From Escherichia coli (GTDB lineage: Bacteria > Pseudomonadota > Gammaproteobacteria > Enterobacterales > Enterobacteriaceae), in assembly GCF_041886205.1 (NCBI RefSeq), contig NZ_CP169029.1: 64,000 nt of DNA. One strand, given 5' to 3'. The position numbers and the translations under genes were made by a program. How positions within the stretch are numbered: the stretch's first letter is position 1; each line of letters starts with the position of its first letter. A model generated the notes under the pieces. The model was given only the letters and a program-made list of their open reading frames with translations. It had not been told where the DNA came from and did not search any database. This document shows positions 12,767 through 13,626 of the stretch, piece by piece.

Positions 12767-13183
12767 TTAAACCATCACCAGCGATAACTCTTTGCCAAGC
12801 GCCTTTGCCGCGAGCTGGACGGCGTCGATTTTTGTCGCATGATGCAAGTTAAATAGGCGAGTAATCTCCTGTTTAGGTTTGCCAATTCGCCTGGCTAACT
12901 CTTGCTGAGTGATTTCTGACTGTAAAAAAGCATTTAACAGCAATACCTTAGAGGCGACGCTCAAAGGTACTTCAATAAAGTGATCATGACTATTTAATGG
13001 CGAAGGTAAAGGGATAAGCTCGTTATCTTCAAAATAAAAATCAAATGCGGTCAGTAAAGCATCTTTTGCCGCTTCCATCGCTTCAGCGACAGTTTCGCCC
13101 TGGGTCAACGCTTCAGGGATATCCACAAAAGAAACCATATAACCGCCTTCCGGCGCGGGTGTAAGAGTGACGGGATAACGCAT
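12767..13183 (-). CDS. hicB: Antitoxin HicB
   Basis: ORF 12767..13204; start taken at MRYPVTLTPAPEGG (ATG 13183), alternative ATG at 13204. Confidence 0.85.
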   Translation of the reverse strand: MRYPVTLTPAPEGGYMVSFVDIPEALTQGETVAEAMEAAKDALLTAFDFYFEDNELIPLPSPLNSHDHFIEVPLSVASKVLLLNAFLQSEITQQELARRIGKPKQEITRLFNLHHATKIDAVQLAAKALGKELSLVMV

Positions 13184-13228
13184 AATTTCGACTGTCTCTC
13201 GCATGTCATTAACCTTTTTAATTGGCGA

Positions 13229-13405
13229 TTAACTCAAACCGAGTTGTTTCAGAATTGCTTTACGCAATGGTTCTTTAATCTCATCGCTAGGGTGACACGG
13301 CATGACACTGCGCCTCCCGTGAAACCTGAGTTTTAAATGGTTGCTGCCATTCGCTACATCGACGCCCTGAGATTCGAGCCAACGTCTGAACTCGCTTTGT
13401 TTCAC
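13229..13405 (-). CDS. hicA: mRNA-interferase toxin HicA, 58 aa, GTG start
   Basis: Manual translation of minus strand: (V)KQSEFRRWLESQGVDVANGSNHLKLRFHGRRSVMPCHPSDEIKEPLRKAILKQLGLS; directly upstream of hicB. Confidence 0.8.
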   Translation of the reverse strand: MKQSEFRRWLESQGVDVANGSNHLKLRFHGRRSVMPCHPSDEIKEPLRKAILKQLGLS

Positions 13406-13437
13406 ATCGCCTCCCTGCCGCTGAGTATATCAACAAA

Positions 13438-13455
13438 GTAAACATTAGTGTTTAC
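13438..13455. promoter_or_regulatory. Palindrome GTAAAC-N6-GTTTAC in hicA/yncJ divergent promoter region; candidate operator
   Basis: Perfect 6-bp inverted arms 33-50 bp upstream of hicA start. Confidence 0.3.
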
Positions 13456-13626
13456 CTCCGTGTGTAATTTGCTCGAAAATAGCACTAAATCGCCGCAACG
13501 GCAGAATGCAATGCAAAATCAGGAAGGAAGATTCCAGAATTTCTTTGCGCTAATTTGCAAAACTGAATAATAACCTCAAGAAACGATCGGCATCATAGCG
13601 GCAAAAGGTAAGAAAAAGGTGGCAGG

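Follow-up and report, generated by a model that had tools for sequence, protein, structure and literature searches.

Is the palindrome that precedes the toxin gene hicA in Escherichia coli the operator through which the antitoxin HicB governs its own operon? The question arises from a 64,000-nucleotide stretch of E. coli DNA (RefSeq assembly GCF_041886205.1, contig NZ_CP169029.1; called the window below), in which a first-pass annotation had pointed to a perfect palindrome in the region between hicA and the divergent gene yncJ and had proposed it as a candidate binding site for HicB or another regulator. We put at roughly 87% the probability that this palindrome (13438–13455, read on both strands) is hicO, the operator of the C-terminal, XRE-type helix-turn-helix (HTH) of the HicB dimer, and that its occupation blocks the hicA-proximal promoter P2.

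The locus is the chromosomal hicAB type II toxin–antitoxin operon of E. coli, which is the type locus of the HicAB family. It lies on the minus strand, and a 1.1-kb stretch containing it recurs at 100% identity in K-12 derivatives and many other E. coli chromosomes; thousands of genomes share the region. The toxin gene hicA (13229–13405) has a GTG start and 58 codons in both the list of open reading frames (ORFs) and the RefSeq annotation, and its product matches the Pfam family HicA_toxin (PF07927, residues 5–57, E = 8.1e-8, 32.7 bits with a cut-off of 27), a domain described as similar to the double-stranded RNA-binding domain. The antitoxin gene hicB (12767–13183, minus strand, 138 amino acids from the RefSeq start, likewise in both sources) encodes a HicB-like N-terminal domain described as a partial RNase H fold (HicB_lk_antitox, PF15919, residues 10–74) and an HTH_3 domain (PF01381, residues 95–141), and the protein equals PDB entries 6HPB and 6HPC over all 138 residues (6HPB_B, E = 8.8e-87). 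With a HicA_toxin domain, a two-domain HicB and a toxin-first operon to which a single transcription start site (TSS) is assigned, the locus is a HicAB module. The gene order, start codon and length of hicA given by the first-pass annotation hold, as does its gap of about 45 bp between the hicA stop and hicB, which is 45 bp when counted to the RefSeq hicB start at 13183. The region shared with yncJ (13627–13857, plus strand; DUF2554 by Pfam) measures 221 bp and contains the palindrome. According to the literature on this exact locus, HicA cleaves mRNA and is neutralised by HicB.

Position of the palindrome in the hicAB promoter region

On the hicA strand, the sequence leading into the toxin gene reads GGAG GTAAACA CTAA TGTTTAC TTTGT TGATATACT CAGCGGC AGGGAGG CGAT GTG. 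The first-pass annotation had described the palindrome as GTAAAC-N6-GTTTAC, 33–50 bp upstream of the hicA GTG. Sequence and location are as stated, and only the extent changes: the element is a perfect 7-N4-7 inverted repeat (GTAAACA/TGTTTAC), with arms of 7 nt and a spacer of 4 nt.

To place the palindrome relative to transcription, we used the TSSs mapped by Cappable-seq under eight conditions in E. coli O157:H7 EDL933, rather than K-12 (PMC10469882, Table S5). An alignment of the hicA–yncJ intergenic region of EDL933 with that of the window has no gaps and one substitution, at 13419, so TSS coordinates transfer exactly. Two starts lie on the hicA strand. The proximal one (EDL933 2070747, window 13416), which is seen in all eight conditions, falls on the first base of the hicA Shine-Dalgarno sequence AGGGAGG (13410–13416), 11 nt before the GTG. 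As the P2 leader is reported to begin one base 5′ of the hicA ribosome-binding site (PMC11878559), the agreement in position identifies this start as that of P2. The distal start (EDL933 2070801, window 13470), 65 nt before the GTG, is found in stationary LB, M9 and acid only, that is, in three of the four stationary-phase conditions, and we assign it to P1.

The promoter elements of P2 can be read directly upstream of its start. An extended −10 element, TGaTATACT (13424–13432, minus strand), has its TATACT hexamer at 13424–13429, corresponding to −13 to −8 and lying 8 nt 5′ of the start, and its TG at 13431–13432. A 19-bp spacer separates TATACT from the −35 hexamer TAAACA (13449–13454), which is part of the palindrome. 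Relative to P2, this inverted repeat extends from −39 to −22 and takes in the −35 hexamer and half of the spacer; relative to P1, it occupies +16 to +33 of the transcript. An RpoD holoenzyme peak was found in the hicA–yncJ intergenic region by genomic SELEX (systematic evolution of ligands by exponential enrichment), and the hicAB promoter predicted in that study is TAAACA-19-TATACT (Shimada 2014), the TAAACA of which is the left arm of the palindrome. The first-pass annotation had named a location outside any mapped promoter as evidence against its proposal; the palindrome is instead located inside P2.

For P1, a putative extended −10 element, TGcTATTTT (13476–13484, minus strand), is located 6 nt 5′ of the start at 13470 and was assigned from sequence and spacing only. 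Secondary literature on Turnbull & Gerdes 2017 describes P1 as an upstream promoter with a CRP-S site, activated by Sxy; the start at 13470 fits such an upstream, stationary-phase, CRP-dependent promoter. We scanned for CRP-S half-sites using the E. coli motif quoted in PMC6728893 in a relaxed form that allowed a CRP- or CRP-S-type base at the middle position of each half-site. The best matches agree at seven of the ten core positions and occur at several places. The best candidate, TTTTGCAAATTAGCGCAAAGAA (13541–13562, minus strand), is centred at about −81.5 from 13470; it is uncertain and has one good half-site, as does a second candidate, TTTTGCATTGCATTCTGCCGTT (13497–13518), at about −37.5. 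No entry for a hicA start was found in MG1655 start-site data from part of the Cappable-seq supplement or from the ROSE and Deter 2017 supplements, and hicA is unmentioned in Sondberg 2019.

A second perfect 7-nt inverted repeat of the region, CTTTGTT/AACAAAG on the hicA strand (13432–13438 and 13395–13401, with 30 nt between the arms), brackets the P2 −10 element, TSS, Shine-Dalgarno sequence and hicA start codon. We rejected it as an operator: one arm coincides with hicA codons 2–4 and the other is kept only in the close clade. It is probably incidental.

Conservation of the palindrome among hicAB loci

A scan for HicB relatives, with one genome taken per species, returned 18 loci, 14 of which have a recognisable hicA and a HicB that is 60–100% identical to that of the window. 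When the 100 nt upstream of hicA are aligned for these 14 loci, only two conserved islands emerge, the Shine-Dalgarno sequence with the start codon and the palindrome. Thirteen of the 14 loci carry GTAAnCA-N4-TGnTTAC at an unchanged distance from hicA, with no other copy in the roughly 3.4 kb examined per locus. The match is exact in 11, and two Citrobacter loci differ from it by one base at the innermost arm position. Between the clades, which were compared pairwise (Escherichia; Citrobacter/Raoultella; Superficieibacter/Brenneria/Serratia/Pantoea), 12 arm positions are 96–100% identical, against 25–42% for the flanks (30 bp upstream and 23 bp downstream). The motif is kept in Pantoea, Serratia, Brenneria and Superficieibacter loci that have neither yncJ nor ydcR next to them, and the palindrome therefore belongs to the mobile hicAB module and not to the E. 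coli neighbourhood. The HTH of HicB is conserved across the loci as well (TQ.ELA.R.G..KQE(I/V)TR(L/I)..L.H.TKID), including the recognition-helix region (KQE(I/V)TRLF..H.TKID).

The variation that does occur within the arms is informative. The fifth arm base may be A, G or T, and its changes are not consistently compensated by the partner base, giving three unpaired and four G-U cells in the alignment. The other six pairs are invariant except in one Brenneria roseae locus, in which the site is lost, and at the innermost pair of the two Citrobacter loci. This is how a protein half-site varies when one of its positions is not contacted, and not how an RNA stem does.

In five loci of the Pantoea, Serratia, Brenneria and Superficieibacter clade (L006 and L011–L014, ~1204–1243), there are two operator-like sites, spaced 21 bp start to start. 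The distal site, GTAAACA-N4-TGTTGAC, contributes its TTGAC as the −35 element, and the right arm of the proximal site, GTAAGCA-N4-TG(T/A)TTAC, overlaps a TACTAT −10 element at a 17-bp spacing. Escherichia, Citrobacter and Raoultella have a single operator, and it is the proximal site that Escherichia keeps; a possible remnant of the distal left arm (A.CAAAT) can be made out in Escherichia at window positions 13465–13476. The two layouts also differ in the predicted start of transcription. In the single-operator clade, TATACT, TATAAT or TATCCT is followed after 7 nt by (A/T)GGG(A/G)GG, which predicts a start at the Shine-Dalgarno sequence, whereas the TTGAC-17-TACTAT of the two-operator clade is predicted to give a leader of some 25 nt in which the Shine-Dalgarno sequence is free. 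This comparison suggests that the toxin-silent design of P2 is lineage-specific, and it may have arisen within Escherichia/Citrobacter/Raoultella. An ancestral two-operator promoter, retained in Pantoea, Serratia and Brenneria, appears in this lineage to have been deprived of its distal operator and TTGAC −35 element, and its −10 element appears to have moved about 10 bp downstream, such that the start now coincides with the Shine-Dalgarno sequence.

Beyond these relatives, two plasmid-borne modules with an HTH-type HicB have palindromes of other sequence. An Arsenophonus plasmid carries two copies of TTAGCA-N4-(A/T)GC(T/A)(A/T)A (TTAGCAAAAAAGCTAA and TTAGCATTTTTGCATA), the proximal of which overlaps TATAAT, and a Variovorax plasmid carries GGGCGAA-N4-TTCGCCC 26–43 bp before hicA. 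These distant modules share the 18-bp layout of two arms and a 4-bp spacer upstream of hicA and differ in sequence.

The operator model and its alternatives

In the secondary literature on Turnbull & Gerdes 2017, hicO is an inverted repeat at P2 that is bound by HicB dimers. The same kind of source has P2 repressed by HicB and derepressed by excess HicA, with a transcript that yields HicB and not HicA. The palindrome described here (i) is an inverted repeat, (ii) overlaps the proximal promoter, the TSS of which lies at the hicA ribosome-binding site, and (iii) is conserved together with the DNA-binding domain of HicB. The proposal of a candidate HicB operator is therefore supported by the position in P2, the conserved arms and the published hicO, and we regard the palindrome as a probable HicB site. 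In the model that we favour, a HicB dimer, which in 6HPB is joined via its C-terminal HTH domains, would read the half-sites GTAAnCA and TGnTTAC, the centres of which are 11 bp, or one helical turn, apart. Bound in this way, HicB would occlude the −35 element and spacer region of P2 and block RNA polymerase. When P2 is free, transcription starts at A13416 with an 11-nt leader that, according to the literature, supports the synthesis of HicB but not of HicA; P1, starting at 13470, supplies a full mRNA translatable for both proteins. Once HicA exceeds HicB, the HicB–operator complex would be destabilised and P2 would fire, selectively replenishing the antitoxin, as the literature has it. P1 is reportedly not repressed by HicB, even though its transcript includes the operator as nucleotides +16 to +33.

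Several observations weigh against this model or limit it. Taken by itself, the palindrome is unremarkable and no more than chance would supply. As a zero-expectation count for its exact sequence would be a post hoc test, we replaced it by a count of all comparable repeats: the window has 112 perfect inverted repeats with 7-nt arms and spacers of 0–12 nt (1.75/kb), and at least one such repeat is present in 10.6% of shuffled copies of the intergenic region (40% for 6-nt arms). The case for function must consequently rest on position and conservation. A generic promoter scan called neither P1 nor P2, both of which have poor −35 hexamers that account for the miss, and its three promoter-like matches equal the shuffle expectation. 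The P2 start is present in eight of eight conditions in wild-type EDL933, so repression is at most partial, and E. coli HicB binds a 147-bp promoter fragment only weakly according to a review. The Brenneria roseae locus mentioned above has an intact hicAB, yet a single GTAATCA half-site is all that remains of its palindrome (L015, 1178–1278). Finally, it is by inference from position, conservation and secondary literature that the 18 bases are equated with the published hicO, almost certainly correctly.

The palindrome could instead owe its existence mainly to its two arms being the −35 hexamers of two back-to-back sigma-70 promoters, P2 and one directed toward yncJ, and would then not primarily be a repressor site. 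The Shimada 2014 predictions, TAAACA-19-TATACT for hicAB and TAAACA-18-TGTAAT for yncJ, use the two arms in this manner, and a divergent plus-strand start (EDL933 2070818, window 13487; four of eight conditions) can be read as belonging to TTTACC-18-GAAAAT, with its −35 element in the other arm. The putative GAAAAT −10 element of this start overlaps the P1 −10 element on the opposite strand. We nevertheless consider it improbable that −35 function is the main role of the palindrome. The arms in their entirety, down to the outer G and C lying beyond the −35 hexamer, do not vary in loci that lack yncJ and have another upstream neighbour, and in the distant clade the proximal palindrome sits between a separate TTGAC −35 element and a TACTAT −10 element, so its conservation there is not explained by −35 function. 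A pair of −35 elements is, moreover, compatible with an operator and does not exclude it. An RNA-level role, in which the palindrome would form a hairpin in the 5′ untranslated region of the P1 transcript (+16 to +33) and modulate its stability or hicA translation, has in its favour that the element is transcribed from 13470 and that the hairpin appears in both the minimum free energy and the centroid fold of the leader. This fold is, however, no better than those of shuffled leaders (z = −1.09; 28 of 200 shuffles at least as good), the stem is A/U-rich and weak with no covariation support, and what is conserved in the arms is their sequence and not just their ability to pair, which leaves this role very improbable. 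A scan of the region for terminator-like sites returned none.

We give barely any credence to the palindrome being the site of a different regulator or a product of chance. The CpxR box is a direct repeat, GTAAA-N5-GTAAA, and the TyrR box is TGTAAA-N6-TTTACA. The arms do hold the CpxR half-site GTAAA and yncJ is part of the CpxR iModulon, but the GTAAA copies are inverted here, the second direct-repeat position reads GTGTT or ATGTT, and the chromatin immunoprecipitation-exonuclease (ChIP-exo) study that has yncJ in this iModulon does not include it among its listed direct CpxR targets. As a TyrR-like box, the element would read GGTAAA-N8-TTTACT, which exceeds the required spacing by 2 bp and has other outer bases, and it scores poorly in the CRP half-site scan. 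Palindromes of this size are common by chance, yet chance is excluded as their source in this instance by the contrast between 96–100% arm identity and 25–42% flank identity and by the transfer of the palindrome with hicAB into other contexts.

Retaining the HicB operator as the preferred reading, we also considered an extension of it, in which the palindrome is a bidirectional control point. Each arm could serve as the −35 element of one of the back-to-back promoters, P2 (start at 13416) and the plus-strand TTTACC-18-GAAAAT (start at 13487), and the transcript starting at 13487 could cross the P1 −10 region in antisense and continue toward yncJ, a Cpx-regulated gene. If so, HicB occupancy would co-regulate this divergent transcript along with its own synthesis. 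This proposal, together with the related one that the toxin-silent P2 is a lineage innovation, is in our estimate doubtful.

The operator model has counterparts in known systems. The nearest is E. coli K-12 hicAB itself, described with P1, P2 and hicO (Turnbull & Gerdes 2017, Mol Microbiol 104:781; structure in Manav et al. 2019, 6HPB/6HPC). It is the same locus, identical in sequence to that of K-12 derivatives, and shares with the window two hicA-strand starts, of which the proximal borders the Shine-Dalgarno sequence, and an inverted repeat at the proximal promoter; no difference is known, and the palindrome corresponds to MG1655 1509236–1509253. In Yersinia pestis HicA3–HicB3 (sites BS1/BS2) and Burkholderia pseudomallei (S1–S2), the antitoxin alone represses a toxin-first operon via palindromic operators, with one operator overlapping the core promoter, and excess HicA destabilises the complex. 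The B. pseudomallei HicB has a ribbon-helix-helix C-terminal domain and an operator sequence unrelated to that of E. coli; Y. pestis HicB3 is of the ribbon-helix-helix type as well. In E. coli, unlike both, a single 18-bp site is accompanied by a second promoter that does not depend on HicB. In other toxin-first modules, MqsA at PmqsRA and HigA at Phig are fully folded dimers of XRE/HTH_3 antitoxins on a short palindrome in their own promoter, for which the toxin is a derepressor and not a corepressor; their half-site sequences and spacings are different. The additional promoters of mqsRA lie inside the toxin gene, whereas the antitoxin-only transcript of hicAB starts at the Shine-Dalgarno sequence of the toxin. 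The HicA^T B subfamily of IncI2 plasmids (PMC11878559) is likewise toxin-first and self-repressed by HicB, and it has a G/C-rich hairpin in the hicA–hicB spacer; E. coli chromosomal hicAB differs in having neither a spacer hairpin nor a terminator-like site detectable by scan.

Spacer, natural variants and wider meaning

A hairpin is found in the spacer of the more distant relatives. Directly 3′ of the hicA stop in Superficieibacter, Brenneria, Serratia and Pantoea (L006 and L011–L015, ~1445–1480) lies a perfect G/C-rich hairpin, CCAGCCC-N4-GGGCTGG, which resembles the internal 'hicA-specific terminator' of the plasmid HicA^T B systems (PMC11878559). A hairpin of this type is absent from the 45-bp hicA–hicB spacer of E. 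coli. The length of that spacer depends on the hicB start, which is ambiguous. An in-frame ATG at 13204, seven codons 5′ of the one at 13183 (MRETVEI-MRYPV), opens the longest hicB ORF (145 amino acids) and reduces the spacer to 24 bp. It is preceded at 8–9 nt by a Shine-Dalgarno-like (A/G)AGG, whereas the ATG at 13183 has no obvious Shine-Dalgarno sequence. The upstream ATG, its frame, the 7-codon length and its Shine-Dalgarno sequence are kept in the Escherichia, Citrobacter and Raoultella loci, and the ATG is missing from the distant clade (Superficieibacter/Brenneria/Serratia/Pantoea). PDB entry 6U0I has 10 additional N-terminal residues, and 6HPB has 138 amino acids.

The operon is flanked by ydcR (11282–12688, minus strand) and, beyond yncJ, by rlhA (13949–15952, minus strand). 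Two further plus-strand starts were mapped in EDL933: the main yncJ start, 24 nt before the ATG, at 13603 (EDL933 2070934; eight of eight conditions) and a minor one at 13570 (EDL933 2070901; stationary LB only).

The module is subject to decay. A common E. coli allele has a 445-bp deletion corresponding to 13005–13449 of the window (L021, 2680–2700), through which P2, the entire hicA gene, the right palindrome half and the part of hicB encoding the N terminus are lost and only a hicB pseudogene with the HTH end remains (junction GGAGGTAAAC|TTCGCC). The intergenic query is not fully covered in 1,162 of 5,415 complete genomes, and all eight of the incomplete-coverage genomes that were sampled (e.g. 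ST131 O25:H4) end at the same base, window position 13450. In E. coli SCPM-O-B-8794 (L004, 1242–1283), about 11–16 bp are missing between the palindrome and CTCAGCGG, including TGATATA of the P2 −10 element. The hicA gene is apparently frameshifted in Escherichia sp. E1V33 (L002, 1280–1452) and Citrobacter sp. Cu233 (L008, 1279–1448), both of which are draft assemblies in which a sequencing error is possible. One E. coli genome (H1, NZ_AP022177.1) has an IS1 insertion in the hicAB locus, and three Citrobacter genomes (L016, L017 and L019) have only C-terminal hicB fragments, adjoining ydcR.

The palindrome noticed in the first-pass annotation is thus confirmed and its reading as an operator supported, and both are already known: the literature has described the locus, its pair of promoters and an inverted-repeat operator bound by HicB since 2017, and structures of the proteins exist, which leaves little discovery value. 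What the case does illustrate is that a true operator was recognisable from sequence alone. The cross-genus consensus, the two- versus one-operator layout and the placement of the −10 element seem to go beyond the available summaries of the literature, if in a minor way. GTAAnCA-N4-TGnTTAC, present as one copy in Escherichia, Citrobacter and Raoultella and as two copies at a 21-bp spacing in Pantoea, Serratia, Brenneria and Superficieibacter, is a portable consensus that could help to annotate autoregulation by HTH-type HicB in Enterobacterales, and in E. coli the common deletion allele takes half of the operator along with the toxin.

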